Source: a virus (taxonomy: Duplodnaviria > Caudoviricetes). Taken from it: a stretch of 64,000 bases of DNA. The stretch covers positions 9,641 through 73,640 of IMG/VR virus record IMGVR_UViG_3300028534_000023. The stretch is one strand, 5' to 3'. The notes beneath the pieces were generated by a model. It saw only the letters and a list, made by a program, of their open reading frames with translations, did no database searches and was not told the origin of the DNA. Shown here piece by piece: positions 3,306 to 63,266 of this stretch (positions are counted from its first letter, which is position 1; every line of letters begins with the position of its first letter). The position numbers and the translations under genes are program-made.

Positions 3306-3403
3306 ATTGTTTTGTTATACTGCCGTGTTGTAGTTATGTTTTTTATACGGTTCAGTTTATTAAATACTGTCCATTCAAGCAGCTATGTAAAAATTTTATT
3401 TAT

Positions 3404-9293: not shown

Positions 9294-9702
9294 CTATTCT
9301 AGTATACAACCTTCTATATGTTGATAACGGACTTTACGGTAGATTTCAATTCTAGTGTCTTTGTCCGAAAGTTGTTCTCTGGTGTGAGTGAGTTGTATTA
9401 TTGAATGAATAGTATGGAATATAGATATATCTTGAGATTCTTTATACAACATAATGTTTATTTTAGGTTCATAAAATATATTATTGATTTCATATATATC
9501 GATACACTTATGTCCACACGCTGAACCTCTGTAGCTTTTTTTGTTTGTACATGTATTTTTAAGATAGGTATTGTTAGCTTTAAGAAATTCGCGTAATTGT
9601 TTAGTGTCATTTATAATTATATCGTAGTCTGATTTGTCAGAATCTACTGTCAGTTAGTATTCCACCGAAGTCATTTATGAGTACATTTCTAAGTAATTTC
9701 AT
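9294..9702 (-). pseudogene. Possible frameshifted nucleotidyltransferase (pol-beta superfamily)
   Basis: MKLLRNVLINDFGGIL joined by a +1 shift near 9654 to LTVDSDKSDYDIII... (about 115 open codons) reconstitutes the hG[GS]x10DhD motif. Confidence 0.4.
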
Positions 9703-17807: not shown

Positions 17808-18149
17808 TTATATTTTATACAAATTTAATATTTTGAATGAAGTAGGTTTTGGTTGTATTTCTAAACAGTAGTCATACTTTAGGCTCGATGCTCCTCGTTT
17901 ACGTTTAATAAGTGTTATGCTGAATATTACTACAGTTCCGTGGTTTAGTGATAGATTGTTTGATACTTGTACCCATAAATGGTCTAATTTTATGTTATCG
18001 TTGAGGATTATCACACCAGATAAACATAAGGTTCGTCCTTTGTTACCATTTATTTTTGTGATTCCGAATTTTTTTACGGTAGCACAACAGTAAATTTTTT
18101 TACCTAGCAAGTGTTTTGTTTTTTCGTATCTTTCTGTTGTTTCTATCAT
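17808..18149 (-). CDS. Hypothetical protein
   Basis: 113-aa ORF with AAGGA RBS. Confidence 0.65.
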   Translation of the reverse strand: MIETTERYEKTKHLLGKKIYCCATVKKFGITKINGNKGRTLCLSGVIILNDNIKLDHLWVQVSNNLSLNHGTVVIFSITLIKRKRGASSLKYDYCLEIQPKPTSFKILNLYKI

Positions 18150-18158
18150 TACATTTCC

Positions 18159-18326
18159 TTAATCAAAAACTTTTGTAAACACCCAATAGAACCCTAAAAT
18201 AAAGCATCCAAAGAATATTACAGGTATTAAAATTGTTGTAAATGCAATAGTAGCTGCATAAAATAAACTTATACTAAGTATAACTATTATTAACAGTGTT
18301 AGAATTGTTAATGTTGAAGCGTTCAT
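18159..18326 (-). CDS. Small membrane protein (55 aa, two hydrophobic segments)
   Basis: Manual translation MNASTLTILTLLIIVILSISLFYAATIAFTTILIPVIFFGCFILGFYWVFTKVFD, with AAGGA RBS. Confidence 0.65.
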   Translation of the reverse strand: MNASTLTILTLLIIVILSISLFYAATIAFTTILIPVIFFGCFILGFYWVFTKVFD

Positions 18327-18337
18327 AATATTCCTTA

Positions 18338-18643
18338 TTATTTTATGTTATATTTCGTTTTATAGGCTGTTAGAATTTCGTCTATGTTTTCATTATCATT
18401 TTCTTCTACTTTTTCAAACGAAGGCAATATCTTTGGTTCGCTAAATAAAAAGTAGAGAGATATTACAGCTGATGCAACAGTAGCTACCAGCATCCCACCT
18501 AACGACCCACCAAAGATAACTGTTAATGTTACTAACAGTGATCCATCAAAGAAAGCGTCTTGAAATCTCTTTTTTTCTATTTTTTTAAATATGATAAGTA
18601 CATTAAAAGCTGTAGCAAATCCCATTATCAGTGACTGGTCCAT
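18338..18643 (-). CDS. Membrane protein downstream of the RNAP gene
   Basis: Hydrophobic helices and an FGGSLGGM motif; AAGGAG RBS. Confidence 0.7.
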   Translation of the reverse strand: MDQSLIMGFATAFNVLIIFKKIEKKRFQDAFFDGSLLVTLTVIFGGSLGGMLVATVASAVISLYFLFSEPKILPSFEKVEENDNENIDEILTAYKTKYNIK

Positions 18644-18722
18644 AACAGTAAGCTCCTTAAATGTTGGTATATACGTGTTACTTTGTTAAACAAAATAACT
18701 ATGATAGGTTATTACAAATCTC

Positions 18723-18760
18723 AAATAAAAAATAAAAGAGTACCACCATATGGCAGTACC
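18723..18760 (-). terminator. Rho-independent terminator after the RNAP gene
   Basis: Minus strand GGUACUGCC-AUAU-GGUGGUACU (9-bp stem with G-U pairs) followed by CUUUUAUUUUUAUUU. Confidence 0.75.
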
Positions 18761-18769
18761 CTATATTCT

Positions 18770-20545
18770 TTATTTCAAAGCTGTATGACAGGCTTTAAAA
18801 TTTCTTATTTTATCTACGGCTTTAAAGCATGCCTCAAAGTCTTTATCAGCTTTTTCTCCTACAGCTCCTATAGATTCTCTATAATCTGTAAGTACTGCAG
18901 TTCTATTTTTATACAGTTTTGTTAAGTTGTCTGCATAAGCTTTCTTAATATGTAATGCCTTAGAAGGTAATGTTAAAAATGCGTCATGGATTGCAATGAC
19001 ATTACTACCTATATTTAAACAAACATTATCAGCTATTTTACTATCTAAATTATGTACTAACCCTGTAGCTGTAAATAGCTTAAATCTTTCATAGTCTGGC
19101 ACTTCAAGTACTTTGTGCAGATGAAACTTCTTGACAATTTTCTTTTTCTCGTCAAACACTTCATATACGTGTAGATCTGCCCCTGCAGGTACAAATTTAT
19201 TTACATACACTTCGTACTGCTCTCCCCAACCATTTACAATATACTTAGGTGTATCTATACTTGTATTCTTGATTATAGCATCTTTAAATCTTTTTACTAC
19301 ACCAAACTCACCACTACTAAAAGCCTTTCTTATAGCCAGTACTTCGTCTGGTTGAATGTCGATACCTGCATCTCTAAGTAGTTTTATAGTACTTTGACTG
19401 CTTCCGTAAAATACAGGTGTACCTACCTTCTTAGCTGATAGTCTTCTAACGCCTTCTACTTCCCAAGCATCTTTTAAATTACCTGCTCTAATTACGTTAG
19501 TTTTGTCCAACAGTCTTTCTTCTCCTAACAATACTCCAATGATCTGACCTAGCGACATCGTAGCATCTAGTTCTATCGGTATATCCCAATAAACTTGACC
19601 TACTTCTCTTAATAGATCTAATTTATCATACATGCGTTCCAACCAAATGTACTCATGTATTGTTTTTCTGTCTAAACTGTCAGGTAATTCTCTATTTAAA
19701 GAAGCTATTACACCACTAAGTACTTTTTCTGCATATCTTTTACGTTTCTTTCCAAGCAATTCTGCAATAAAAGCATAAACAGCATTTAACGAATCTTCAT
19801 CGTGGCTATGTAGTATCTCGCCCTTGTTTAATACTAGACAAGCTCTAGCTCCTTTATCAGTAATTGGGTTAAATACTCTTTTTAACCCTTTGTATACTGC
19901 CCTTCCTCTTTGGTCCAGATATAGACCTTCTAAGTTGAATACTGTGTCTTTACCAGCAGTTATGACATTTTCTACTACTTGCTCTACTACTTTGCCGAAA
20001 TGTAAAGTATTATTTATTGACGGGTACTTTTTAAGTATCTTTTTCATAGCATATACAGAATTTTCTATTAAATGTTTTTTGTACTTTACTATATAATTTT
20101 TATCGTATCTATACGAAACTTGTGAAGACATCAGAAACCCCGGTCTGTTTAACCCTGTTTCTTTTATACCGTACGGAGTTTTAACTTCTGTGCTTATATC
20201 ACTCGTAAAGTACTTAGGCATATACTTATTTACAAGTATATGTTTACGATATTCTAAAATGCTTGTTTTTCCGTAGTAATCTTCAAGAGTACTTACATTA
20301 ACACCGAACGAAGCATAAGAGTGTCTTATTTCTGTTACTAACAAGTTATAATGATCTAACACCATCATCAAATCTACTATGTATATTGTACCAAATTCGT
20401 CTTCTAACCCTGGTACTGACAATAACTTACCCGTAGCTATACTCCATTCTAATTTATGCATTACTTTGTTGAATGTATCTGATCCATAAAACAGTGTATT
20501 TAATGCTTTGTCTGAAAATACTGTTTCTATATATTGTACTAACAT
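18770..20545 (-). CDS. T7-family single-subunit RNA polymerase (N4 RNAPII position), one chain
   Basis: YLDQRGRAVY (DxxGR), IELDATMS (motif A), RRLSAKKVGTPVFYGS (motif B), LVHNLDS, IAIHDAF (motif C). Confidence 0.93.
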   Translation of the reverse strand: MLVQYIETVFSDKALNTLFYGSDTFNKVMHKLEWSIATGKLLSVPGLEDEFGTIYIVDLMMVLDHYNLLVTEIRHSYASFGVNVSTLEDYYGKTSILEYRKHILVNKYMPKYFTSDISTEVKTPYGIKETGLNRPGFLMSSQVSYRYDKNYIVKYKKHLIENSVYAMKKILKKYPSINNTLHFGKVVEQVVENVITAGKDTVFNLEGLYLDQRGRAVYKGLKRVFNPITDKGARACLVLNKGEILHSHDEDSLNAVYAFIAELLGKKRKRYAEKVLSGVIASLNRELPDSLDRKTIHEYIWLERMYDKLDLLREVGQVYWDIPIELDATMSLGQIIGVLLGEERLLDKTNVIRAGNLKDAWEVEGVRRLSAKKVGTPVFYGSSQSTIKLLRDAGIDIQPDEVLAIRKAFSSGEFGVVKRFKDAIIKNTSIDTPKYIVNGWGEQYEVYVNKFVPAGADLHVYEVFDEKKKIVKKFHLHKVLEVPDYERFKLFTATGLVHNLDSKIADNVCLNIGSNVIAIHDAFLTLPSKALHIKKAYADNLTKLYKNRTAVLTDYRESIGAVGEKADKDFEACFKAVDKIRNFKACHTALK

Positions 20546-20590
20546 CTTCTTGTCTCCTTATTTATAAATTATTTTATTGTATAAGAGAGC

Positions 20591-21193
20591 CTATACTAGC
20601 TCTCTTTGACGTTTTAATGACGCTTCTCTTTGCATCTGTACTTCTATAACTTTGTCCATAATGCGTCTTTCTTCATCTTCCCAGTCTACTTCAGGTACTT
20701 CTACAATACTCAAGTTTAACTGATCTGCAATAATTGCTATAAGTAATTGCAGTTTTTCGTAATCTTGGGGATTACCTTCTATTACAACACCTTCATCATC
20801 CAGAAAACTGTGGTATCCGTACGCACCATTAATATCCAGTAGTGTATCTACATCTACACCTTTCTTTTCAAGCAGGTCTTTTACTATTGTAAAATTTGTT
20901 TCTATAAGCTCTTGATCCCACTGACCTACTACTGGGTTGTTTGCTATTTTAGACAATAACACAAGTAAGCCAACAACTTTACCTTGTGCTGCTTTCTTTG
21001 CAGTTTTGATACGCTTTTCTACTGTTGTTACATCAGCTTCAATAGCTATTGCAACTTCTCTTACCAAGTTTTCTAATGCCTTTACATCAGCCAGCTGCAT
21101 AGATAAATCGATACCTGCAGTGCTTTCTAGTAGTGCTCTTCTTTTTTCTGCCAACTCTTGTTTTCTTTGTTCAACTCTCTCTTGAAATGTCAT
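20591..21193 (-). CDS. Early hypothetical protein, helical/acidic
   Basis: 200-aa ORF with AAAGGA RBS, directly upstream of the RNAP gene. Confidence 0.75.
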   Translation of the reverse strand: MTFQERVEQRKQELAEKRRALLESTAGIDLSMQLADVKALENLVREVAIAIEADVTTVEKRIKTAKKAAQGKVVGLLVLLSKIANNPVVGQWDQELIETNFTIVKDLLEKKGVDVDTLLDINGAYGYHSFLDDEGVVIEGNPQDYEKLQLLIAIIADQLNLSIVEVPEVDWEDEERRIMDKVIEVQMQREASLKRQRELV

Positions 21194-21265
21194 GTTCTTT
21201 CCTTTGAAATTTATTTAGAACCTGTATAGGCTCTTTAGAACAGTAGAATTTACTGCTCTAAGAGA

Positions 21266-21361
21266 CTATGTATCTATATCATTTGACACTATTACTAACG
21301 TAATAGCTACAATCAGAATAACTAAAATTTGACACATAATTATTTTACTTTGTACATCCAT
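21266..21361 (-). CDS. Small hydrophobic peptide (31 aa)
   Basis: MDVQSKIIMCQILVILIVAITLVIVSNDIDT, with AGGAG RBS. Confidence 0.5.
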   Translation of the reverse strand: MDVQSKIIMCQILVILIVAITLVIVSNDIDT

Positions 21362-21402
21362 CAGTAATCTCCTAATTCTAAATTCACACTATGTATATAG
21401 CT

Positions 21403-21418
21403 CCTATTATAATAAAAG
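21403..21418 (-). promoter_or_regulatory. 16-bp repeated motif, copy 1 (plus-strand CCTATTATAATAAAAG)
   Basis: Matches the copies at 22662 and 23023 (15/16 to each). Confidence 0.55.
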
Positions 21419-21611
21419 TTTTTGTGTATTGCAAGTAGTCACCCAATACCATAAAAATATTTACTGTCTGTTTACCAAATCGTCCAAACAATATATATAT
21501 TATATATACTATACTGCTGTATTGGTAATTAATGAATCTGTATAAAACATACAAAAACGTCCATTTCTGTACTATCGTTCTTTAATACGGATTAAATCTG
21601 GACTGATACAC

Positions 21612-21640
21612 TTGAATTATGTACAAAAATAGTATATAAT
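21612..21640 (+). promoter_or_regulatory. Sigma70-type promoter for the ParB-like gene
   Basis: TTGAAT-17 nt-TATAAT, followed by AAGGAG RBS and ATG at 21666. Confidence 0.7.
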
Positions 21641-21665
21641 ATTGAGAATTTAAAGGAGTTAAAAT

Positions 21666-22364
21666 ATGGAGTACACTATAACTAAAAAGCTTAAAGCAGG
21701 TAAAACTTTCCCTGTAAACCAAAACTTGGCTGGAATAGTACCTATGGCTACAGAAGATGAGCAAGCTTTACTTACTGATGATATAAAACAGAATGGTTTA
21801 ATACATCCTATAGTACTGTACAAAGGACAGGTTGTTGATGGAAGGTGTAGACAAAAAGCTTGTCTTACTCTTAGCATACCTGTAGAAGCCGTTGATCTTG
21901 ATGACAGTCTATCTGAGGATGATGTTAAAACATATGTCAAAGCAGTTAACACTAGAAGAAACTTGACTAAATCACAACAAGCTATGATTGCAGGTAGAGA
22001 AAGTTTAAAACCAGGACATACACTATCTGCTGAAGCCAAAGCTTGGGGAATTGGTAGATCTGTTGTAGCTAATGCTAAATGGTTATGGAAAAACTACAAT
22101 GATGTAGCACAACAGCTATTTGATGGCAAGGTAGTGCCTATAGGAGATAAACTTACTACTTCTAGGGTTACTGTTGCCTATGCTTATTATAAGTCATTGT
22201 CTGAAAATGTTAAAGAAAACATTGAGCACGGTTTTGAAGAAGGTACAGTAATTAAAACACAGGCTGGAAAAGAGTGGTACTATAAACAAGTAAAAAACTT
22301 ACATGATGATGTTAGAGTAAAAATACTTTTAGCTGAACTAGCTAACTATAAGTTCAGTAGGTAA
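21666..22364 (+). CDS. ParB/Srx N-terminal domain protein with a possible HTH
   Basis: LTDDIKQNGLIHPIVLYKGQVVDGRCRQKAC and NTRRNLT are ParB-like; LSAEAKAWGIGRSVV is HTH-like. Confidence 0.8.
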   Translation: MEYTITKKLKAGKTFPVNQNLAGIVPMATEDEQALLTDDIKQNGLIHPIVLYKGQVVDGRCRQKACLTLSIPVEAVDLDDSLSEDDVKTYVKAVNTRRNLTKSQQAMIAGRESLKPGHTLSAEAKAWGIGRSVVANAKWLWKNYNDVAQQLFDGKVVPIGDKLTTSRVTVAYAYYKSLSENVKENIEHGFEEGTVIKTQAGKEWYYKQVKNLHDDVRVKILLAELANYKFSR

Positions 22365-22661: not shown

Positions 22662-22677
22662 CCTATTCTAATAAAAG
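22662..22677 (-). promoter_or_regulatory. 16-bp repeated motif, copy 2 (plus-strand CCTATTCTAATAAAAG)
   Basis: Intergenic, 28 nt upstream of the leftward ATG at 22634. Confidence 0.55.
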
Positions 22678-23022: not shown

Positions 23023-23038
23023 CCTGTTATAATAAAAG
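23023..23038 (-). promoter_or_regulatory. 16-bp repeated motif, copy 3 (plus-strand CCTGTTATAATAAAAG)
   Basis: Intergenic, 38 nt upstream of the leftward ATG at 22985; adjacent to a G7 run. Confidence 0.55.
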
Positions 23039-26307: not shown

Positions 26308-26937
26308 ATGACATACCAACAATTTATAGACATGGCAAAAGCAGGTGAATTAAAATCTTTAGCTATTAAAACAGATACTGAAGCTATATTATCATTTGTT
26401 AATTTAGGTCTTTTAGAGTTATATAAAAGATTTCCTATAAAAACTGTAGAACATATAGTTGAGTATGACGAGAATAATATTACACAAGAATATAAAATGC
26501 CTGCTGATTACATGTGGTTAGTAGCTGCTTATTGTGAAGTACCTTCAAATTATTCTGACAACACTATGTCACTTCCTATTAACAGTGTAGACGATCCTTA
26601 CACTGTAAACACTGTAAGTTATAATACAATACAGATACCTATGATGGCTTCGCAGGAACGTGTATCGCTAATATACGCTGCTTCTCCAGACATTGTTACA
26701 GAAACTGACATATTATCTGAGTTAGATTTACCTATACCACCTCAACTTATAGACTCGCTAATGTTATATGTAGCGTATAAAGCAAATGATACTGTTGCTG
26801 GCAATAAAACAGATATAGAAAGCAATGTACATTATACTAGATACGAATTAAGTATAAAACGTGTAGTGGCTGAAGGTATGTTTAATGAAGAGAGCTTAGA
26901 TATGTCTGGAAGACTTTATCAAAAAGGATTTATATAA
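26308..26937 (+). CDS. Virion structural/adaptor protein (N4 gp67-like)
   Basis: ILSFVNLGLLELYKRF and LMLYVAYKA patterns; position after terL. Confidence 0.7.
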   Translation: MTYQQFIDMAKAGELKSLAIKTDTEAILSFVNLGLLELYKRFPIKTVEHIVEYDENNITQEYKMPADYMWLVAAYCEVPSNYSDNTMSLPINSVDDPYTVNTVSYNTIQIPMMASQERVSLIYAASPDIVTETDILSELDLPIPPQLIDSLMLYVAYKANDTVAGNKTDIESNVHYTRYELSIKRVVAEGMFNEESLDMSGRLYQKGFI

Positions 26938-51360: not shown

Positions 51361-54300
51361 ATGGAGTACGATATTTCACAAGCAGGTTCTGCTGCTGTAG
51401 ACAATTTTACTACTGCTGTAGAAAATGATTATTCGTCTTCTGCAACAGAAGAATACAAAACAAATAAATTGTCTTCTGTTGCGCAAGATAAAGTATCAAG
51501 ACTTTCTGGCAGATCTGTCGCACCTGACATATCTCCAGAAGCTGCATACGCTTTAAGCTCGTTTGACGAAGTACCAGAAGGTACATCTTTTTCTGATGAC
51601 TACTCTTCTAACCTATCTGCACTCACTAATACTGTAAGGGGTGGTGTTGGAGCATTTGCAAGTACAGTAGTAAATCTTCCATTGCAGTTAGCTTCTACAT
51701 TAGAATCTGCTGCTACTTACGGATCGTCTAAATACTTATATGGAAAATCTGATGAAGATGCTTACAAAGATGCGCAAGTCGCTAGTTTTTATTCTGCTGA
51801 TACAGCTAACGATCTTACACATATGTTACAAGGAGAGCAATTTACTAGACACCATGCTGCTAAACAATCCGAGTTTGACAAGACATTCAAAGAGTCTGGG
51901 CTATCCGATTTTGACATTTTTAACCCATCAGAATCGTTAGATAAATTAGACGGAGGTAAGGTAGTAGATACTGTAAAAACTGCCTTTAGTGATGTAGATT
52001 CTACTGTGGATTCTTTAGGACATGTTGCAGGGTTTTTACTAGGTATACCTGAAAAAGGTTTAAGATACTTAATGTCATCATCTGTTGGAAAAGTCACAGC
52101 TCACCAAGCTGCTAAAAAAGAATTGTCTAAACTCATTGATAAAGCTGCAAAAACAGAAACTAAAATAAGTACTGGTTCAATCAGTAAAAGTGATGTCCTT
52201 AACAAGGGTATTGTCATAAACTCTATAGATGATTTAAGTAAAGCAGCTAAAGCTAAATATATCACATTCGCAAACCCGTCTGTAGAAAAAGAGGTTACTA
52301 AACAATTAGCCAAGTCTACAAGAGTTTTAGATAATGTAGGTACAGGTTTAAAAACTAGGGCTTGGATTCTTAATAATTCAAACAACCTAGCACTAGCTTC
52401 TGATATGTCTTTACAAGATCTTGATGAATACCAGAAAAAATATGGTGACATGCCTACACTCACACACGCTTTACTTGGTTACGGCGCTAACTTTGTAGGA
52501 GCTAAGTTAGAGCTATGGAGTGATAAACTTGCTTTAGCAGGTACTCCACAAGGAGTATCAGAACTTGTTGCAGGTATGGGTAAAACGAAGGCTAAAAAAT
52601 TCGTAACAGGGCTTGTTGCAGGTAGTCTTAGCATGCTTGAAGGTGGTATAGCTGAATTTCCTGCAGAATTTGTACAAAGTGCTATACAGAGTTTTGACTC
52701 TAGCTATAAAGACGAAAGTACTTTTACAGAAAGCGTAAAAAAGGCATTTAACGACGGTTTAAAAGGTTCTATATATGGACTATCTTCAGGTGTACATATG
52801 TCTACACCTAGAGCATCTATTAAACCATTTACTAACATGATAAATAGTGGTACATCAAATACGTATGATGCTGTAAATACTATAACTTCCGACAACGGAG
52901 TTTCACTTAAGCAGTCAATAGCCAACGAGACAGGTGTCCCTGCAGAAGACCATAATGTAGTTATAAATAGTATTGAAACTGCTATGAATACTGCTGACAC
53001 ACCTGTCAACGAACTGTTTACGCCAGATGAACTTAAAGCAAATCGAAATCTTGTTGATAACTATGTGCTTACTCTAGGAGATGAAGTAAAGCGCATAGAC
53101 TCTATTATTAGTGATGACAACAACGAGCTTACAGAAGAAGATAAAACCAATCTACTAAGTAAAAGAAACGATTACAGTGCAGGTATTGCCAAATTTATGG
53201 AAATGCGCGAATACCTAGAAGATCCAGATACAGGATATACGTTAAATAGTAGACCTGTCAGCTCTATAGAAAAAGATCTAATGTCAGTATCTGAGCAGTT
53301 GAAAGAAAGTCCATCAGACAACAAACTTAACAAGCTTAAAAGATACCTTGAAATCGAGAAATATGTTGCAGAACACCCTGCTGTAAAATCTACAGGTGTA
53401 ATTGGAGATAGTGGCGTAGATACTGTAGGAGATGACATAAAGTCTAGTATTAACACTACTCGTATTCAAGGATTGTTTGGTGGGTACACTGATGACGGAT
53501 ACCGTACAGGTATTATGCATATGATTAAACCGTTGCTTAATCAAGATAATACAAAAGAGCAAACTACAGCAGCTGTAAACAATATAAATAGATTTATAGG
53601 ATCACAAGTAGCTAAATACGATGCTCTTATTAAGTCTAAAGATAAGTACGAGTCTAATGGGAATGTCCCTGTAAAGGTAAACTATAAAACACCAAAAGGT
53701 ACTGTACATAACGTCGTATACAACGGAAAACAGTCTGATAGTTTTTTAAAAAATATAAAAACAGATATAGATTTATACAACAACATACTTGAGATGGCGT
53801 TAGGCAAGCCTTCTAGCAATGGCATAGATAATAATACACGTACCAGTAGTACAGTACAAGCTACTAAATCAGTTGACAATTATGACAGTATACCAGATAA
53901 TGAGAAAAATTCTATAAAACAGCTTTTGACTGAATCAGCTAACAACAACTCTTCATTATCGTTAAACAGTTTACTTACAAAATCAGCTGTGCATAGAAAA
54001 TACACCAGAGAGCTAGCTAACAAACTTGGCATTAAGCTAAGTGTACGTGACGGTTCTATATTTGTGAATACAGAAAAACCTACGTCTGGTAATACTGCAA
54101 CTAAACCTGCTAATAATATTGTACAAAACAGTAGTAAAGACAAACCTAAGTCTGTTACAGACAAAATAAGTACTTCCAATGTACAGTCATCCAATAAATT
54201 ATCATCTCATGACGCTAAAGCAATTGAACAAGTTATTGATAACTTACTTAACGGTGGAGAAGATGTAGACGTAAAAAACAGCATAGTAGCAAAGACAAAA

Positions 54301-55269
54301 TTACATAAAAATTATACAAAAAAAGTCGCTGATAAACGTGGTATAAAACTTTTTATTAATAAAGGTAAACTAAAAGCAAGGAATGGTGGTAAGCATGAAA
54401 CCTCAAATAAAGGCATTAAAAGAAAGACTAAAGAAGGTACAACAAATGAAAAAAGAAGGAAATCAGTTACTGTCAAAGACGAAAGTAGCTATGAAAAAGA
54501 TTCATTAAACAATGCCGTAACTCGTAGTAACAATTTATTGAATCTAAACATGTCTACACAAGAATTGATTGATGTTTTAATTGATGAATCTTATACGCAG
54601 TCAAACCTAGTTGAAAGTGCTAGAGTAATTGAAATAACTGCTAATAAACTACTTGATACTGATAACAGTATATCAATTGATGAAAAAACGCAGCTAAATT
54701 TACTAGTAGATTTAGCTAATGAGCTTATTTCATTACACAATGTAAAAAAAGAGCTAACTGCTTCTGCAAATAAACTCAACAATGTGCGTAACTTTTATGT
54801 AAAACTTCATCTAAATAACATCAATAAATGGCTTAATAAGTATACTGACACTTATAAAAAACTATCTACAAGTAGTAAAAGAAAAGCTACAAAAACATTT
54901 AATACGCTTGCAGGTAGTAGGATAGTTTCTTCAGGCAGGTTAAAAAATACCAAGAACAAAGATGCTGTACTGCTTGGTGACATAACAGACAATAAAGAAC
55001 TGTTTAATACTGCCATGCAATTATCTGGTAATGAATATTTTAACCTTGTATCTGATACTGAATCATACAGTAAAAGAAAATCTAGCATAGAAAGTCGCAT
55101 TAAACGATTTAGGAATGAGGCATCGTTTTATAGTAGTAAACGTAATAAACAAGTAGCAAATCTTACTTCTGTAAAAGATAGTGTAGCTAGTAAGGACCTT
55201 GTTGATAAGTATAACGTATCTACCGATACACTAGAGTCTTTACACGAATTTTTAGGGGGTTGTAAATAG
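51361..55269 (+). CDS. vRNAP locus part 1: large virion/ejection protein without polymerase motifs
   Basis: 1302 aa with amphipathic/hydrophobic N-terminal segments; abuts the RNAP ORF in the same frame. Confidence 0.75.
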   Translation: MEYDISQAGSAAVDNFTTAVENDYSSSATEEYKTNKLSSVAQDKVSRLSGRSVAPDISPEAAYALSSFDEVPEGTSFSDDYSSNLSALTNTVRGGVGAFASTVVNLPLQLASTLESAATYGSSKYLYGKSDEDAYKDAQVASFYSADTANDLTHMLQGEQFTRHHAAKQSEFDKTFKESGLSDFDIFNPSESLDKLDGGKVVDTVKTAFSDVDSTVDSLGHVAGFLLGIPEKGLRYLMSSSVGKVTAHQAAKKELSKLIDKAAKTETKISTGSISKSDVLNKGIVINSIDDLSKAAKAKYITFANPSVEKEVTKQLAKSTRVLDNVGTGLKTRAWILNNSNNLALASDMSLQDLDEYQKKYGDMPTLTHALLGYGANFVGAKLELWSDKLALAGTPQGVSELVAGMGKTKAKKFVTGLVAGSLSMLEGGIAEFPAEFVQSAIQSFDSSYKDESTFTESVKKAFNDGLKGSIYGLSSGVHMSTPRASIKPFTNMINSGTSNTYDAVNTITSDNGVSLKQSIANETGVPAEDHNVVINSIETAMNTADTPVNELFTPDELKANRNLVDNYVLTLGDEVKRIDSIISDDNNELTEEDKTNLLSKRNDYSAGIAKFMEMREYLEDPDTGYTLNSRPVSSIEKDLMSVSEQLKESPSDNKLNKLKRYLEIEKYVAEHPAVKSTGVIGDSGVDTVGDDIKSSINTTRIQGLFGGYTDDGYRTGIMHMIKPLLNQDNTKEQTTAAVNNINRFIGSQVAKYDALIKSKDKYESNGNVPVKVNYKTPKGTVHNVVYNGKQSDSFLKNIKTDIDLYNNILEMALGKPSSNGIDNNTRTSSTVQATKSVDNYDSIPDNEKNSIKQLLTESANNNSSLSLNSLLTKSAVHRKYTRELANKLGIKLSVRDGSIFVNTEKPTSGNTATKPANNIVQNSSKDKPKSVTDKISTSNVQSSNKLSSHDAKAIEQVIDNLLNGGEDVDVKNSIVAKTKLHKNYTKKVADKRGIKLFINKGKLKARNGGKHETSNKGIKRKTKEGTTNEKRRKSVTVKDESSYEKDSLNNAVTRSNNLLNLNMSTQELIDVLIDESYTQSNLVESARVIEITANKLLDTDNSISIDEKTQLNLLVDLANELISLHNVKKELTASANKLNNVRNFYVKLHLNNINKWLNKYTDTYKKLSTSSKRKATKTFNTLAGSRIVSSGRLKNTKNKDAVLLGDITDNKELFNTAMQLSGNEYFNLVSDTESYSKRKSSIESRIKRFRNEASFYSSKRNKQVANLTSVKDSVASKDLVDKYNVSTDTLESLHEFLGGCK

Positions 55270-58200
55270 ATGGGTAAATGTAATATGAAAGTATCCAATG
55301 AGGATATAGCAAAGTTTTTACAAAATAGGTATAAAAGTATTGACGCCAAAGATGTTACAGCTTTACATAAAGCAGTTGTCGATAATGTTTCACTATCTAC
55401 TCATTTTACTGCAAATCCAAACACAAGGTCTAATCTAAATAACGTAGATCACACAACAGACCCTCATATAAAGATAATATTTGACAATATCCATAGCCTT
55501 ATAAACAATATCTCTGTTAATGACAATTTTGATAAAACCTTTATAAATCCTTCTTCTGGGTATAGTGTAACTACTGGTTGGCAAAGTTTTATAACTACTA
55601 CGTTTACTGACGTAACATCGCTCGACAGCAATGGAAACAATATAAAACATAGACAGTTTGTTGATGTAAATATTCCTAAAGCTATTGCACTTGCTACAGC
55701 TAGTGTGCTTTCTGATTACGTAGTCCCACTACTACCTGGTAACAGAAGTGACGAAGCTGTACGAGCACTTACTTTCAAAGATAAAAAATCTTACATATCT
55801 CCATCATTACGTAAATCTGTTGGAAATTTTGACGCTCTATATAATCCAACAGTACAAGAAATAGGTATAAAAGCCTTTAAGCTACTAGGACTTAAACCTG
55901 CTGACAGTGATGTTTTTAATAACGATAACATAATGGAAACTTTTATAGCAGAACTAGGTATGATAGGGTTGCATTCAATCCCTGGATTTAGTGTAATGTA
56001 CCTGCGTGAAGTTGATAAAAATAACATGCTTACTAATGTAACGTTACTTAATCCAGACACTAAAGTTGTCATATTTCCTAAACAATATTATAAGAACGAC
56101 GACAGTGTTACTAATACTGTAAAAATAGTTTCTCAATACAACAATAAATTGCATGTCAATATAGGAGATAAGAACTCTGTATCTAGTATAAGGTCACAAA
56201 TGGAGCTTGCTACTCATACTGCTGAAGATAAGTATGGTATGTATAAATATCCTGTTACAGACTATAAAAACTTAAATATTAAAGGAGCTACGTCAGTAAT
56301 TGGTGACAATGAGGTTAGTACTGTACATAGAAATGCTTTAAAACGTCTAGGTACTACTGGAATGTATCATAAACCAGGATACGTAAAAGCCATAGAATCT
56401 CTCAACTCAATAGTATATGATGACGGTTCAACACATCTTACGAAGCTTCTTGGGTATATAGATCCATCTACAGTGATTAAAGGTCTTAAAGAAAAAGTCA
56501 ACGGCAAAAACAAAATGATAACTGATCTTGTTGACAATTACTTTGACGCCGTATCAGAATTTGGTGTAAATAATCCTATGTACGCTAAATTTGATATTGT
56601 TGCAAACGGAAGATTTTACTTAGACAGCAACAAGTTTAACTATCAAGATAAAAAACTACATCGTATGGGAGTATACGCAAAAACAACACCTGTCAACAGT
56701 GCTAATATAAATACTTTTAAAATTGCTATCGCACAGTCTTTTGGTGTTAAAACTGACAAAATGCTTCCATCTGACTCTATAAATAGTTACAAACGTATTT
56801 CCGATGATATACTAAATAACGTAACTGACGAATTATCTGATGTATATAATATTATTAAAGAAAGTGATGATAATACTACTATAGACAGTGTTAGAAATAC
56901 TGCAGAGTACGTTAACGCGTTAGTCTCTATTATAGATTATGTCACTAGTAAATATAATAAAGAAGATCCTGAACTTGCTATATCAGGTTCAGTAGAATTT
57001 TTAGATTATGTTATAAATACTGACATGTTAAACAGTTCTCACGAATCTTCAATAATGCCTGAAGGTGACGGTAAAACTTCTGGTAGAGGTATTAAACTTG
57101 TACTATTTCCATTGTTTGACACATTTGACGAATATGTTAAAGAACTTGAGCGAGTAGGTGTATACGTTGAAGGAAAATCTGGATTCAAAAACGTAGCTGA
57201 GTTTGAAACAGACAGCAGTACTTACGATGCTTATAACTATCCAGCCAAAATATTTACAGATACTTTAAAATCGTTTTCAAATATACCAGAAGCTTTAAAA
57301 GTACTCATAGATCCTGACTTCAATGGTGGTGTCATAAGCAGATCGTTCATGAAATCACCTGTAATGGTAGCTGATTATGGCGCTGGTATAAAAAGCATTG
57401 TAGACAATATCATACAGTCTGCAGAAATAAATTTTTATGACTTAGTTAACAATTACTACCAAGACACTGTTGACAATAGTATTGACAATACTACACTACC
57501 TATATACATAAAAGATAAACTGTTTTTATTTGCCGATACTCAACATAGTATTATAGATAGGCTTATGTCAGATCCGTCTAATTTTGAATTAACTTCTAAA
57601 GAACTGTCACGTCTTAAATCTTATATTATGTACAACTCTCCGTACCCTTTAAAAGATTCTAAAGGCAATATACTAAGTCCGTCTTCTGGTGCAGTTGAAT
57701 CTGCATACAAGGCTTTAGAGGTTACATTTGATAAATTTCTTGGTAAATATATTTCTCTTAATAATAACCTTAACAGTGCTATAGTTACTCAGTTTAAACT
57801 AGGAAAACTTTTGTTAGATAATAAACTACAAAAAAGATATAATTACTTAGTAAACAAATATGGCAGTGCTACACTAGTGCCACCAGTCACTAAAAAAGAA
57901 CTATACGGTATGATAGCTGACTTATCTGATGTATTTCCTGTAATCAATACAGCTTTAAATAAATCAGACGGTAACAAAGCAAGAATGTTGATAGCTTCAT
58001 TTGAAAAGGCGCGTAAAGGTTCTAAAGAATTGCTAGGAAACGTTTCTCCTACAGGTGCTATACGTATTGCAGGTAAAATGCATAACTCAGCTATAGAAGT
58101 ATATTCTTTAGTAGAGGCAGTTTCTTCTGGAATGGTTTTACCTGTACACTTTTTTGATTCTGGTGTTATAGCCCATCCACTATCCGTGTTTGATGGTATA

Positions 58201-59385
58201 GGTATCCACGATGGTTTAATGACATCTATAGATGATATTGTAGACAGTGTTTCACTTTATAACAAGGCTTGGATTACTATGGCTAAAGACTATAGTCCAC
58301 TTCAAGAAGTAATAAAAAGTAGTTTACGCACCTTAAAAGAAGTTACTGAATTTACAAATTCTTCTGACTTAAACGCATTACCAATCGAAGATTTAATGTC
58401 TTTTAGTAACCTACTCCAATCATTAATTACGTCCATAAAAACTCTTGACGGTTATGATTCCACTGCTTCTAAATTAAAAGAAAAATTATTTAATTCTGAC
58501 TTATATGTATCTCAGATGTACTTTCAGTCAGTAGATCCTGGAGGAAACCTACTAGACGGTTCATATAAGTACAATTCTTCTAAAGATTCTAAATTGCATT
58601 ATACTACTGTTTTGAAAGGTTATGATGGTTATGGTACAATTTTATCTGCTGCTAACACAGCTGTAGGTATGTTGAGCAATATACTTGAACCCAGTGATAA
58701 AAATACATCATCGTTAAAAGCTTTTGATGATTATTTGCATGAAGTAGACCTTACTATAGAACAGGTGTACGAAATTCAGAAAGCAAATGCACTATACCTA
58801 CAACATACTGATGCTAAAGTTTTTAGAGGGTCATTGTTTGAATATGATCCACAAAAAGACGTGATTACTACTATACCTAAAGAGTATATGGATGAATCAG
58901 AATACGAAGTCTATTTAGCGCATGAAATTCGTCATAGAATTACATATGATTACTTATCACGTAATATACACAGTAATGAAGTAAAGTATTTACTAAAAGC
59001 TGTAAAGAAAATAGCTAAAGATTTTGACGTTACAGGTAATATTACTTTTGATGATATGGCTCTTTTTAATAGGCTTAAATATATGACTAGTAAAGGAACT
59101 GATTTAGAAAATGTTGCAGAAATTGTAGCTATTTTAAGTTCTGAGCCTAATGTTAGAAATGCTTTTATTAAGCATTTTCCACAAAAAACTCGTAGCAAAT
59201 TACATGAATTATTCGATAAACTAAAAGAGTATTTAGGCATCTATAGCGATCCTGCTTACATTATACCAGTAATCGATAATATTGTTGAAGAAAATTTACC
59301 TAAAACTTTACGCAAAACGTTTTCATACAACAATTTAAGTGATGCTACTGTACAATTTATAACAGATTTAGTAAAGGAGTGTTAA
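55270..59385 (+). CDS. vRNAP locus part 2: N4-like virion RNA polymerase catalytic domain plus C-terminal zincin motif
   Basis: DIVANGRFY..NYQDKKLHR, EGDGKTSG (motif A, ~57061), RSFMKSPVMVADYG (motif B), GIHDG (motif C, ~58201), AHEIRH. Confidence 0.9.
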   Translation: MGKCNMKVSNEDIAKFLQNRYKSIDAKDVTALHKAVVDNVSLSTHFTANPNTRSNLNNVDHTTDPHIKIIFDNIHSLINNISVNDNFDKTFINPSSGYSVTTGWQSFITTTFTDVTSLDSNGNNIKHRQFVDVNIPKAIALATASVLSDYVVPLLPGNRSDEAVRALTFKDKKSYISPSLRKSVGNFDALYNPTVQEIGIKAFKLLGLKPADSDVFNNDNIMETFIAELGMIGLHSIPGFSVMYLREVDKNNMLTNVTLLNPDTKVVIFPKQYYKNDDSVTNTVKIVSQYNNKLHVNIGDKNSVSSIRSQMELATHTAEDKYGMYKYPVTDYKNLNIKGATSVIGDNEVSTVHRNALKRLGTTGMYHKPGYVKAIESLNSIVYDDGSTHLTKLLGYIDPSTVIKGLKEKVNGKNKMITDLVDNYFDAVSEFGVNNPMYAKFDIVANGRFYLDSNKFNYQDKKLHRMGVYAKTTPVNSANINTFKIAIAQSFGVKTDKMLPSDSINSYKRISDDILNNVTDELSDVYNIIKESDDNTTIDSVRNTAEYVNALVSIIDYVTSKYNKEDPELAISGSVEFLDYVINTDMLNSSHESSIMPEGDGKTSGRGIKLVLFPLFDTFDEYVKELERVGVYVEGKSGFKNVAEFETDSSTYDAYNYPAKIFTDTLKSFSNIPEALKVLIDPDFNGGVISRSFMKSPVMVADYGAGIKSIVDNIIQSAEINFYDLVNNYYQDTVDNSIDNTTLPIYIKDKLFLFADTQHSIIDRLMSDPSNFELTSKELSRLKSYIMYNSPYPLKDSKGNILSPSSGAVESAYKALEVTFDKFLGKYISLNNNLNSAIVTQFKLGKLLLDNKLQKRYNYLVNKYGSATLVPPVTKKELYGMIADLSDVFPVINTALNKSDGNKARMLIASFEKARKGSKELLGNVSPTGAIRIAGKMHNSAIEVYSLVEAVSSGMVLPVHFFDSGVIAHPLSVFDGIGIHDGLMTSIDDIVDSVSLYNKAWITMAKDYSPLQEVIKSSLRTLKEVTEFTNSSDLNALPIEDLMSFSNLLQSLITSIKTLDGYDSTASKLKEKLFNSDLYVSQMYFQSVDPGGNLLDGSYKYNSSKDSKLHYTTVLKGYDGYGTILSAANTAVGMLSNILEPSDKNTSSLKAFDDYLHEVDLTIEQVYEIQKANALYLQHTDAKVFRGSLFEYDPQKDVITTIPKEYMDESEYEVYLAHEIRHRITYDYLSRNIHSNEVKYLLKAVKKIAKDFDVTGNITFDDMALFNRLKYMTSKGTDLENVAEIVAILSSEPNVRNAFIKHFPQKTRSKLHELFDKLKEYLGIYSDPAYIIPVIDNIVEENLPKTLRKTFSYNNLSDATVQFITDLVKEC

Positions 59386-59387
59386 CC

Positions 59388-62300
59388 ATGCAATGTAGCA
59401 CACATCTTACAAAGGAACAGATAGATAAGGTAATTAGTATGAACCCTGATACTGATCCAAGCATTATCGTAAAAGAGGCTAATGCAGCCTATTATGACAG
59501 AATTAAAAACAAATCTGTACTAAATCGTAGTAATAGTTCTGATACTCTTTTTAATTTTAGTGATGTAGATAGTACTGTTTTGCATGAACTTATATCAGGT
59601 AAAGAGTTGTTTAAAGGTGATGTTAATACTATAATTACTCAGCTAAATAAATTAGACAGAGAGTCTGCTTACTACGATGAAGACCATAGTAAGTACTTAC
59701 ATGATGTACTATCTCAATTTCAAAGTACTGTAAAAGAACTTAGATCTTATTCTGTCAACGTTACTAAAGACTTTATTGAAGGTTTAACAGAACCTGTAGG
59801 AGAACATAGTAAAAATAAGATATCGATTGCAACTGCAAAAGGTATAGCGTCCAGTATCTTAAATCTTACAAACGAAGAAACTTTAGTACATGAGTATACT
59901 CATGCATTTACCAGTGTAGTGTTCAACAAAGAGCTAGGTATTTATGCTACTGATATCAAGAATCAATTACGAAGTTTGTATGAAACAGCCAAAGACAATC
60001 TTACATATAAAGACTTGCTTGATGGTATCAGTAATCATTCTAGTACTGATGTACAACTTGCTAAACGTATGTATGATTATATATTTAACGGAAACATACT
60101 AGACTATTCTATACAAGATGCTAATGCCAGATATGCAGAGTTTTTAGCTTACGCCATGACAAACAAACAATTTAAAAAAGCTTTATCAAAAATCGAAGCG
60201 TATCCTAATGAAACTGACATTATGGATAATAATGTAAAATCTACTTTGTATAAATTGTTTATGAGAGTAGTTAATTTTGTTAACAATATAACTAATAAAA
60301 AGTTTAAAGTAAGTAAAGACAAGACTGCTACCGTAGATTTAGAAGTTGGTAGACTACTTCTTGAAATAGGTAAGATAAATCAAAAATATGGGTACAAAGC
60401 AGTAGAAACAATAAACGAACCGTTAGACCAAAGAGTATCAAAAACTGTTATAAACAATTTAGAAAAGTTAGATAACAAGCTTTTTAAGTTTACTACAAAA
60501 AGTACTGAAAAGTTTTTTAACAGTATTGATATCAACGTATCTCCAGATGATAAAGAACAGTTTGCTAAAGTCGCTAAAAAGTTGAATAACAATATCAATA
60601 AACTGCGTAAAGATATTACGTCCAAAGATTTAAGTTTGTTTAAAAAATCCTATGCCTACGCTGATATTATATACAATATCAATAAATTATATTATCTATC
60701 TAAAAAGACAAAAAATAAAGAATTTTACAAAAAGTTAAATGAGTTTATGCACCAGTTCGATGCTTTAGGTTTGCATTATTTAACAGATGTTATAAAAGAC
60801 TTCAAAACAGGTAGTAGCACATTTGTAGAAATTAGTGATAAAGCTATGCAGTTTAAAACACATTTAGATAGAGTTAGAGATATTTATTATAAAGGTACGT
60901 TAAAATTTTTACTTGAAGAATTTAAACATTTTGATATGAAACATAATCGTAATATCGAGTATAATAAAGTACTAGATAGGGTAATACTTCGTACAGATAT
61001 ACAAAGCGTTACTACTAGTGTTAACGAACTTAAAAAACTATTGTCTAATGCAGATTATAGAAGAAATAAAATAGCATCTATTGAAGATGAATTAAAAACT
61101 GCTATCGCTACTACACTACTTGATGAGATAACTATAGGAGATGGAATTGTAAATGACTGCAAAAGTTTAGCTTCATATATGACAACAGGTGTAGGACATA
61201 GAACAAATGCTGTAAACATAGCTAGACGCTTTGGGTCATTTAATGTTATAACTTCTGATGAATTTCCTAACATACAAGAAGCATATAATATCAATGACAT
61301 AGTTAAAAAAATAGATAAGCTTACAAGCTTATATGCTCTTGACAACAACACTGAAAAAGACTTTAAAATGATGCTAGATCTTATAGCTAAAGATCGTAAC
61401 GGAGTTGAAAAATTTATTAACACAGCGTTTGGAGCTGCTGTTGCACATTACGAAGATTTTTATACTGCAGATAATTTACACAATCTTGTCAAGGGGCAAG
61501 GACATATACGTTATGATAGAGACAAAGAGCTTATATTTGCTCCATTGTCTGATTTAACAGAACTTAAAAATGCTGGATACCATTTTGTTAGAAAGATGAA
61601 ACAAGATTCTATGGATACCGATGATACTCCTTACGGTGTTTTTTATACTACTGATCGTATGAGTAACAAAAGAGTTGACGGTACACTAGGCTTGCAGCAA
61701 TTAAAAGTTCACGGTCTTTTATTAAGTCAAAAAATAATGTATTCAAATCCACACTTAACTGGCAAAAAATTAGGTGATAGGATAACAACTGCTATAGCAG
61801 AAGCAAGATACTCTAAAAGTGGATTGTATGAACACATGTATCCAGTGTACAACTCAGAAGGTGAGATAATAGATTTCAGGTATGAGTTCCCTATCAACGA
61901 AAGAGAGGAGTTACAAGGTATAGAAGTACGTGGTATTGAAAATCTATCTCGTAGCATAGGACAGAAAGAATCGCAATTACGTACAAATACGCATAATAGG
62001 GAAATCATAGATATAATACTAGAAGATACTGATAAGCACGTAGATGAACCTGACTATGAGTTTTTAGTACTTCACGCACCTGAAAAAATTATTACACCTG
62101 AAGGTAAGGTTGTCGATAACGGTGCACGTACTGAAGGTGAAGAATTGTGGGGACTATTACCTGACGATGCTAAAAACTATATAATAGACATCAACAAATC
62201 TTCTGATAATAAATACGGAAAAAATGGTACGTATAGACATATAAAAATACGTAAAGAGTTACTTACTCAGCTGTTCGGATATGATGAACCAAGTATTACT

Positions 62301-63266
62301 GAACTACCTATATTTAAAAAAATATCAATGAAACGTGTAAAACAGTTCAAAACTATTGAAAGATATTGGATAGATCTTATTAGCATAGCTAAAAGCAATG
62401 TTGTAGTTAAAACATTAGAAACGCAATGGAATAACATAATGTCTAATGCTAAATTTTTCTTTTTTTCTGGAGTACCTCCAAGAGATGCAGGTAGATATTT
62501 AGCATCCAGTAAATTGTATCTTGAAGACTGGAAAAAGCTTGAGCGTAATATTAGGCTATTAGAAATAAGAGCAGACTCAGAAAAAACCAGTTCTCGTAAA
62601 CACAGCATAGAAAAACGTATAGCAATGCTTAAAGCAAAGCAAAACGATAATCCCTTAATGCCGTTATTTGATGCAGGATTGTATCAGGTTATTTCTGAAG
62701 ATATAGATGTAGAAGAAGACAACAACACTATTACTAAAGCTATTACAAGCAAGTTTGATAACTTATTATCTAAAAACACTACTCTTGAATCCGTCATAAA
62801 TACTATCTTTTTGACAAGAAAATCTACAGCAGGTAAAATCTTAATACATACTATGCAAGAATCTGATTTTCACTTTAGAGCTGCTATATACCTTCATGGT
62901 ATAGCTAATGGTAAAACTAAAAAAGAAATGCTTCGTAAAGTAACAGATAACTTTATAAATTACTCTAAAGTAACATCGAGCAGATTTATCAGATACCTTA
63001 ACAATACAGCTCCTGAAGCTTTCTGGACATATTTTGCTAATATTCAAAGAGTTAATTGGGACCTGATTAAAGAAAAACCTGTACGAGTTATTATAGATAC
63101 TTTAGGAAAAAATTTCACTGATTATGTACCTACTGATACTCTTGACAGTTCTTTTATATCTGAGCTAGGAAAACGCGCTAACCCTGTATATTGGGTCACT
63201 AACACTTCTAACCTGTTTGTAAGATCTTTCGATATACCTATTTTACACGTATTGCGAGGTTTTTAG
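59388..63266 (+). CDS. vRNAP locus part 3: large virion protein with zincin HExxH motif
   Basis: VHEYTHA...AEFLAYA; AAGGAG RBS inside the upstream ORF before the ATG at 59388. Confidence 0.75.
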   Translation: MQCSTHLTKEQIDKVISMNPDTDPSIIVKEANAAYYDRIKNKSVLNRSNSSDTLFNFSDVDSTVLHELISGKELFKGDVNTIITQLNKLDRESAYYDEDHSKYLHDVLSQFQSTVKELRSYSVNVTKDFIEGLTEPVGEHSKNKISIATAKGIASSILNLTNEETLVHEYTHAFTSVVFNKELGIYATDIKNQLRSLYETAKDNLTYKDLLDGISNHSSTDVQLAKRMYDYIFNGNILDYSIQDANARYAEFLAYAMTNKQFKKALSKIEAYPNETDIMDNNVKSTLYKLFMRVVNFVNNITNKKFKVSKDKTATVDLEVGRLLLEIGKINQKYGYKAVETINEPLDQRVSKTVINNLEKLDNKLFKFTTKSTEKFFNSIDINVSPDDKEQFAKVAKKLNNNINKLRKDITSKDLSLFKKSYAYADIIYNINKLYYLSKKTKNKEFYKKLNEFMHQFDALGLHYLTDVIKDFKTGSSTFVEISDKAMQFKTHLDRVRDIYYKGTLKFLLEEFKHFDMKHNRNIEYNKVLDRVILRTDIQSVTTSVNELKKLLSNADYRRNKIASIEDELKTAIATTLLDEITIGDGIVNDCKSLASYMTTGVGHRTNAVNIARRFGSFNVITSDEFPNIQEAYNINDIVKKIDKLTSLYALDNNTEKDFKMMLDLIAKDRNGVEKFINTAFGAAVAHYEDFYTADNLHNLVKGQGHIRYDRDKELIFAPLSDLTELKNAGYHFVRKMKQDSMDTDDTPYGVFYTTDRMSNKRVDGTLGLQQLKVHGLLLSQKIMYSNPHLTGKKLGDRITTAIAEARYSKSGLYEHMYPVYNSEGEIIDFRYEFPINEREELQGIEVRGIENLSRSIGQKESQLRTNTHNREIIDIILEDTDKHVDEPDYEFLVLHAPEKIITPEGKVVDNGARTEGEELWGLLPDDAKNYIIDINKSSDNKYGKNGTYRHIKIRKELLTQLFGYDEPSITELPIFKKISMKRVKQFKTIERYWIDLISIAKSNVVVKTLETQWNNIMSNAKFFFFSGVPPRDAGRYLASSKLYLEDWKKLERNIRLLEIRADSEKTSSRKHSIEKRIAMLKAKQNDNPLMPLFDAGLYQVISEDIDVEEDNNTITKAITSKFDNLLSKNTTLESVINTIFLTRKSTAGKILIHTMQESDFHFRAAIYLHGIANGKTKKEMLRKVTDNFINYSKVTSSRFIRYLNNTAPEAFWTYFANIQRVNWDLIKEKPVRVIIDTLGKNFTDYVPTDTLDSSFISELGKRANPVYWVTNTSNLFVRSFDIPILHVLRGF

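Follow-up and report, generated by a model that had tools for sequence, protein, structure and literature searches.

RNA polymerases (RNAPs) of the T7 type have a large promoter-binding N-terminal domain of ~300 amino acids (aa), and T7 RNAP works without a cofactor. N4 RNAPII depends on the cofactors gp1 and gp2, of which gp2 is a recruiter that binds single-stranded DNA. In the published view, phages with a virion RNAP (vRNAP) carry a heterodimeric second polymerase, and the question of why it is split has been raised (PMC4496689). All vRNAP phages but two are said to have this heterodimeric RNAPII (Lenneman and Rothman-Denes, PMC4496689). The stretch analysed here, called the window below, comprises 64,000 nucleotides (nt) of a Caudoviricetes virus, positions 9,641 to 73,640 of IMG/VR record IMGVR_UViG_3300028534_000023. 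Its minus strand encodes a polymerase, P0001, and just upstream an acidic protein, P0002. We describe the fold, motifs and family of P0001, its synteny with P0002 and its co-occurrence with a vRNAP, and propose a timing, a template set and a partner. With a probability of about 0.75, as judged from sequence comparison and structure models, P0001 is an active single-chain DNA-dependent T7-fold RNAP of a deep, unannotated lineage that plays the part of N4 RNAPII in N4-related vRNAP phages.

A sequence-only reading of the window had placed all motifs (DxxGR, A, B and C) in one open reading frame (ORF) of 591 aa, and this is confirmed by the ORF, by alignment columns and by the fold model. The catalytic columns of P0001 coincide with those of T7 RNAP at T/DxxGR and at motifs A, B and C in an alignment of 33 rows, which combines P0001 and its relatives (the family) with T7-like RNAPs, N4 RNAPII and two virion RNAPs. 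Residues D211, R213, G214, R215, D327, Y380, G381, H520 and D521 are invariant in the 37-member family alignment A1, and R368 and K372 nearly so. Catalysis would proceed through the two aspartates D327 and D521, with R368 and K372 predicted to bind the nucleoside triphosphate and Y380 to select the ribonucleotide. The AlphaFold2 model built from A1 has a mean predicted local distance difference test score (pLDDT) of 93.3 and a predicted template modelling score (pTM) of 0.90. It shows the palm, fingers, thumb and N-terminal domain of the right-hand, Pol I-like T7 fold together with the full set of motifs. Foldseek matches the model to T7 RNAP at E 5.8e-13, and VIA aligns the two over 434 residues (Z 24.7, root mean square deviation 4.3). 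Among mitochondrial RNAPs, the yeast and human enzymes give Z 22–24 over residues 1–591 of P0001, with the yeast enzyme at Z 24.1 and 528 residues aligned over residues 2–591. N4 RNAPII gp16 aligns over 305 of its 404 residues with model residues 250–591 (Z 19.7), and N4 mini-vRNAP gives Z 15.7. The higher Z for T7 RNAP than for gp16 is a matter of chain length, since gp16 alone reaches its value over 305 residues.

The long β-hairpin between motifs B and C is, we infer, equivalent to the specificity loop of T7 RNAP. In P0001 it has a net charge of 0 and a Lys-rich tip; in most of the 37 members compared it is net basic. In N4 RNAPII the specificity loop is described as too acidic for reading DNA (PMC7145618), so P0001, whose family hairpin is mostly basic, may touch DNA more directly. 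No Pfam family matches P0001 at E≤0.01. In PHROGs it is matched by phrog_27203 (residues 76–239), phrog_22493 (318–496) and phrog_22720 (496–568), all labelled "unknown function", and near motif C by weak local matches to phrog_414 (E 2.4e-6) and phrog_2051 (residues 513–547 only, E 3.4e-5); phrog_2166, the gp15 family, does not match in this search. A phmmer search of P0001 alone against PDB sequences returns a chance NIF3 match only, and the family profile is needed. The Pfam sequence model misses P0001; fold and motifs still put it in the superfamily of T7-like single-subunit RNAPs. The reading frame is kept in an independent 9.6-kb contig of a 2025 study (~98% identity), which spans 18000–21700 and differs by 79 substitutions but no indel. 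Epibiont and hydrothermal-vent metagenomes of several studies contain near-identical DNA, with pieces at ≥99% in a vent metagenome. The public runs X3, X5 and X6 cover parts of the stretch, and the uncovered parts carry no information.

The single chain is the usual form of the family, and P0001 is typical, not unique. Matches to P0001 in the phage collection are confined to the four Alteromonas AD45 phages, at 32% identity and in three pieces. Metagenome searches gave 70 word-sharing homologs, and an exhaustive profile search gave 449 clusters (50% identity) at E≤1e-3 and 204 at E≤1e-30, none of them named. Classed against the family profile, 126 of the 212 retrieved proteins are full single chains (median 597.5 aa, mostly 557–657 aa), 15 are large subunits starting near profile position 250, 26 are pieces broken at position ~337 in motif A, 9 are pieces ending at ~503 and 36 are other fragments. 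The 32 IMG/VR loci divide into ~17 single-chain and ~14 split. Fused forms are in this sense already common, though none is annotated. The family has been overlooked because Pfam and PHROGs leave it unnamed and because the AD45 authors reported finding no RNAPII genes (PMC3821669). The lineage comprises polymerases of ~560–660 aa and occurs in N4-related, AD45-like phages of roughly 75–125 kb with a vRNAP. P0001 is well supported as a minimal single-chain RNAP; it is a deep, unannotated form of a known enzyme kind and is common in uncultured N4-related phages.

The window phage is a distant N4-like phage. Its vRNAP is encoded by three ORFs, as the split virion enzyme of the sequence-only reading implied: phrog_2206 positions 1054–1894 match ORF 55270–59385 and positions 2250–3380 match ORF 59379–63266, and the C-terminal ORF is 20–25% identical to Schitoviridae vRNAPs. 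The same profile matches in five of five records (that of the window, three relatives and Alteromonas phage AD45-P1). When the window's 1371-aa vRNAP ORF was used as a query in five relatives nothing was found; the profile found the vRNAP in all five records, so this empty result is a failure of sensitivity. The first two vRNAP ORFs (51361–55269 and 55270–59385) lie in the same frame with only TAG and then ATG between them (55267–55272), and cysteine codons flank this junction (TGT AAA TAG ATG GGT AAA TGT). In the window's record phrog_2051 and PF00940 have no match outside the P0001 gene. In four relatives (CheckV 94%, 91% and, for G002, 85%; AD45-P1) phrog_2051 finds no canonical gp16, gp15 not being searched separately; the positive control of the phrog_2051 search, N4, gives 6e-174. 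The lineage of this family is an unrecognised exception to the statement that vRNAP phages have heterodimeric RNAPII (PMC4496689). The proposed inversion of N4 architecture, a single-chain RNAP beside a split vRNAP, holds for the window and is not general, as the AD45-like relatives split both enzymes.

The sequence-only reading took P0001 for the unsplit, ancestral-like N4 RNAPII. Part of this stands: P0001 is a single chain in the RNAPII niche, a small non-virion single-subunit RNAP (ssRNAP) in a vRNAP phage. Among all PDB sequences the family profile matches N4 RNAP2 only (6dt7_B, E 2.1e-5), so that gp16 alone among solved structures is related to it at the sequence level; compared with the single gp16 sequence, the family reaches 88.7% in hhalign (E 2.5e-6). 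Fifteen of 37 family members match phrog_2051 and 10 of 37 match the T7-type phrog_414. N4 RNAPII and P0001 also share a reduced N-terminus and a short A–B spacing (63 and 45 residues vs 94 in T7 RNAP). Simple orthology is opposed by profile scores and by the tree. When the halves are aligned to N4, gp16 matches the C-terminal part (profile–profile 97.3%, E 2.4e-11), but gp15 matches at DxxGR only (hhalign E 0.27). The family matches T7-like enzymes at E 4.3e-9 and gp16 matches them at E 4e-19, so N4 RNAPII is much nearer to the T7-like enzymes than the family is to either. In line with this, gp16 passes Pfam RNA_pol at 3.9e-14 and the family fails. In a maximum-likelihood (ML) tree (IQ-TREE, LG+C20 PMSF; 32 rows by 520 columns; the S-CBP3 RNAP, a 471-aa fragment, left out) the family (100/100), N4 RNAPII (100/100), the T7-like RNAPs (97/94) and the vRNAPs (91/82) form clades, and N4 RNAPII joins the T7-like RNAPs at 99/97, apart from the family. 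Forcing the family and N4 RNAPII into one clade is 12.8 log-likelihood units worse (approximately unbiased test, p-AU 0.032); the long branches of the family and the vRNAPs could distort this quartet, so the rejection is marginal. On this marginal evidence the tree gives no support to simple orthology with N4 RNAPII, and P0001, one ORF with no heterodimer split, is not a full-length member of the gp15 or gp16 sequence families. It seems unlikely that P0001 is a true N4 RNAPII ortholog that kept the ancestral unsplit state and diverged fast; the family fits best as a deep lineage of its own in the RNAPII niche. An RNAP of the T7/Autographiviridae kind, gained by horizontal transfer and then trimmed, is suggested by the best Foldseek and VIA matches, which are T7 RNAP chains, and by the weak phrog_414 match. 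This origin is already contradicted and we give it very little credence: the family is monophyletic and no clustering with T7/Autographiviridae RNAPs was found, as the T7 clade excludes it; there is no PF00940 match to the family, hhalign against the single T7 RNAP sequence gives a probability of 2.9%, and 211 residues precede DxxGR vs 421 in T7 RNAP.

The history of the split bears on the same question. The gp15|gp16 boundary of N4 maps to P0001 249|250 (T7 453|454) and the cut of the AD45-like clade to P0001 241–243 (T7 448–450), and alignment mapping places both in one loop, past the strand that follows DxxGR. The ~14 split loci are cut at P0001 239–243 | 253, giving ~248 + 370 aa with short spacers. 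The breaks outside this loop are group I introns according to Rfam (RF00028, 56–84 bits) and are therefore not protein-level splits; their insertion points in the relatives' polymerase genes are motif A and a site shortly ahead of motif C. The exons flanking the AD45-P1 intron are annotated as separate hypothetical proteins. In a family tree of 83 rows, rooted on N4-type sequences and with a family root that is not secure, the single-chain form prevails among the deepest rows and among the clades, and the large-subunit-only P0295 and P0287/P0289 are also near the base. Split forms are concentrated in one derived AD45-like clade, and at least 6–8 state changes are needed. The N4 lineage has a one-piece form as well. 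P0192, a canonical N4-type RNAPII of 648 aa on a 10-kb metagenome contig (33% identity to gp15, 42% to gp16), matches Pfam RNA_pol and branches in the ML tree outside four split N4-type rows, within the N4 RNAPII clade. Such canonical one-piece forms look rare, with 2 proteins longer than 471 aa sharing gp15 words vs 1827 gp16-like clusters; the best 120 of the 1827 matches are all ~400 aa and the gp15 search needs shared 5-residue words, so that this rarity is indicative, not proven. The simplest reading has both lineages start from a single chain and undergo fission independently at the same loop. Splits in N4's loop, and single chains at or near the base of both lineages (P0192 and the basal family rows), also fit orthology with N4 RNAPII. 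P0001 might instead be a secondary re-fusion from a family ancestor split like N4, as the N4-loop split forms in ~14 of 32 IMG/VR loci, the number of state changes and a few large-subunit-only proteins near the base or within single-chain clades (P0295, P0287/P0289, P0256) would allow. We consider this improbable: these isolated rows may be contig-end fragments, P0001's own clade has 20 single chains among 22, the deepest rows are mostly single-chain and the splits fall in one derived clade. The profiles phrog_2166 (505 positions), which covers gp15 and ~125 residues at the start of gp16, and phrog_20599 (149 positions), which covers the gp16 N-terminus alone, differ in extent; Schitoviridae thus also vary in the position of the RNAPII cut.

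P0002 accompanies the polymerase strictly. An iterative search with hidden Markov models finds a homolog of 175–237 aa just upstream of the polymerase and on the same strand in 32 of 32 loci, including gp041 of AD45. The isoelectric points (pI) of the partner family are mostly 4.6–5.7, while the polymerases are basic (pI ~9). The P0002 model has a pLDDT of 95.6 and resembles nothing specific: Foldseek gives no match at E≤0.001, the best all-against-all VIA matches are generic helical bundles (Z 6.8) and the ESM Atlas gives no usable match. Pfam and PHROGs give no matches either. The sequence-only reading proposed P0002 as a gp2-like cofactor. The strict synteny lends weight to this proposal, but hhalign finds no similarity to N4 gp2 or gp1 (probability 0.2% and 0.1%). 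Cofactors are non-homologous between N4-like genera, as with Drc and gp2 (PMC7145618). P0002 as a detached N-terminal domain of a T7-like RNAP was also considered and rejected: the P0001 model aligns to T7 52–883, and P0002 matches no RNAP chain. P0002 is a candidate cofactor, chaperone or regulator.

Downstream of P0001, on the same strand, lie genes for an ATPase, a thymidylate synthase, an exonuclease, a helicase and DNA polymerase A; the record also encodes a large terminase subunit. Where the leftward block begins, upstream of early leftward ORFs, the 16-nt promoter-like motif CTTTTATTAtAAtAGG occurs in three copies, with ACAC-rich repeats ahead of each one. These are the only good copies, which makes them candidate early promoters. 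Expression of P0001 would be early, from the leftward operon behind these copies, and the enzyme would then transcribe the same-strand replication and middle genes, probably together with P0002. Several observations weigh against this picture of an active polymerase in the RNAPII role. The early and middle timing is inferred by analogy with N4, which has three early promoters, and a k-mer search finds no conserved promoter word in the style of T7 that recurs across the middle genes; short AT-rich words aside, no exact k-mer of 11–14 nt occurs four times or more. PF00940 scores 12.6 bits on P0001 in the six-frame search, under the 22-bit gathering cut-off. The record, 73.6 kb with the window as part of it, is 73% complete by the CheckV estimate, and the absent portion could contain a canonical RNAPII, though near-complete relatives are without one. 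Within the P0001 gene, a vent metatranscriptome library has a single contig of 246 nt (19896–20140, 3 differences), which may be carried-over DNA. No DNA-binding fold was recognised in P0002. The predicted complex of P0001 with P0002 scores 0.54 (best of three controls 0.26), which supports binding weakly: 58 of 80 solved complexes attain the mark, as do 2 of 110 mismatched pairs, and scores of 0.60 or less include 7 of the 80 together with both passing mismatches. The runs show 100% contact agreement, with a partner pLDDT of at least 81. Together with the strict synteny, we put binding or functional coupling of P0002 to the polymerase at about even odds.

Table 1. Features of the window and group I introns in polymerase genes of relatives
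Feature	Sequence	Position	Strand	Remarks
P0001 gene, 591-aa single-chain T7-fold RNA polymerase	window	18770..20545	(-)	ATG-started ORF
Shine-Dalgarno AAGGAG of P0001	window	20554..20559	(-)	8 nt 5' of ATG
T/DxxGR motif, D211-Q-R-G-R215 = T7 D421-R425	window	19901..19915	(-)	invariant residues and column alignment with T7, N4 and vRNAP
Surface loop, residues 241-250, unbroken in P0001	window	19796..19825	(-)	alignment mapping; split loci; gp16 residue 4 aligned with model residue 250
Motif A, residues 323-337, catalytic D327 = T7 D537	window	19535..19579	(-)	group I intron at same site in relatives
Motif B / O-helix, residues 367-382: R368, K372, Y380, G381 = T7 R627, K631, Y639, G640	window	19400..19447	(-)	
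Long β-hairpin, residues 451-483	window	19097..19195	(-)	DSSP strands E451-465, E470-483; between motifs B and C
Motif C, residues 517-523, IAIHDAF; H520, D521 = T7 H811, D812	window	18977..18997	(-)	
P0002 gene, 200-aa acidic (pI 4.7), mostly helical protein	window	20591..21193	(-)	candidate cofactor
DNA hairpin, 7-bp stem AGAGAGC / GCTCTCT	window	20584..20605	(-)	spans P0002 stop codon, 40 nt before P0001 start; read from sequence
Promoter-like motif CTTTTATTAtAAtAGG, 16 nt, nearest copy	window	21403..21418	(-)	
CTTTTATTAtAAtAGG, further copies	window	22662-22677 and 23023-23038	(-)	
Virion RNAP as three ORFs (1302, 1371, 1295 aa)	window	51361..63266	(+)	
Group I intron	AD45-P1 L001	5713-5967		Rfam; GIY-YIG/NUMOD endonuclease gene then follows
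Group I intron	L005	7433-7726		Rfam
Group I intron	L033	6855-7101		Rfam
Group I introns	L036	6764-7062 and 7694-7955		Rfam

The DNA hairpin at the end of the P0002 gene may serve as attenuator, processing site or promoter element. An inverted-repeat scan of 21100–21720 gives AT-rich palindromes only. Between the third CTTTTATTAtAAtAGG copy and the P0002 gene lies a 31-aa ORF (21266–21361, minus strand) with a strong Shine-Dalgarno sequence and a hydrophobic core (MDVQSKIIMCQILVILIVAITLVIV...). Further along, 26937–31310 encodes a 1457-aa protein with collagen repeats and RCC1-like β-propeller repeats, probably a tail fibre.

For vRNAP phages these results define a large group whose second polymerase usually consists of a single chain. 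The N4-style split arose again in the same loop, so that the question of split versus fused forms becomes testable with natural variants. The cultured relative, Alteromonas phage AD45-P1, opens the biology to study, including the intron-bearing polymerase gene and the partner's role. If active and promoter-specific, an enzyme of ~590 aa, about two-thirds the size of T7 RNAP, could be useful as a compact transcription tool. More tentatively, and with somewhat less than even confidence, we suggest that the family may be a third ancient lineage of non-virion phage ssRNAPs beside the T7 and N4 RNAPII types. In this proposal it would include the smallest full-length T7-fold RNAPs found (~557–600 aa) and form an obligate pair with the fold-orphan P0002-type protein, and its independent fission in N4's loop would mark a structural fault line.

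Compared with T7 RNAP and the Autographiviridae enzymes (PF00940, phrog_414), P0001 has the same fold, catalytic residues, single chain and B–C β-hairpin, and its spacing from DxxGR to motif A is identical (116 residues in both, 108 in N4 RNAPII). As the sequence-only reading held, it is far shorter than T7 RNAP (591 vs 883 aa, a difference of 292 residues). About 210 of the missing residues precede DxxGR (211 residues from the N-terminus in P0001, 236 in N4 RNAPII, 421 in T7 RNAP), and the A–B insertion in the fingers is half as long. From motif B to C the three enzymes have 149, 204 and 181 residues in the same order, and from motif C to the end 70, 62 and 71. P0001 is also shorter than N4 RNAPII (673 aa, gp15 269 + gp16 404) and P0192. 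P0001 may be among the smallest single-subunit RNAPs, its size being typical of the family; the literature search, in a limited library and so no proof, found no smaller T7-fold RNAP described. With N4 RNAPII (gp15 + gp16; PDB entry 6DT7; phrog_2166 / phrog_2051) P0001 shares the minimal T7 fold, the reduced N-terminus, the four motifs and a phage that carries a vRNAP. It differs in being one chain rather than two, in the shorter A–B and B–C spacings and in failing Pfam RNA_pol, which gp16 passes; gp1 and gp2 have no homologs here, and in their place stands another acidic partner, itself conserved. P0192 shares with the family the one-piece form and a collinear order from DxxGR to motif C (hhalign 84.8%, E 6.6e-6, 333 columns). 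In Alteromonas phage vB_AmaP_AD45-P1, gp044, gp046 and gp048 (phrog_27203, phrog_22493 and phrog_22720) belong to the same family at 32% identity to P0001. Unlike P0001, this polymerase consists of a small subunit, gp044 (247 aa), and an intron-interrupted large subunit, gp046 + gp048. As in the window, the partner gene is present (gp041) and the virion RNAP is split (PMC3821669).

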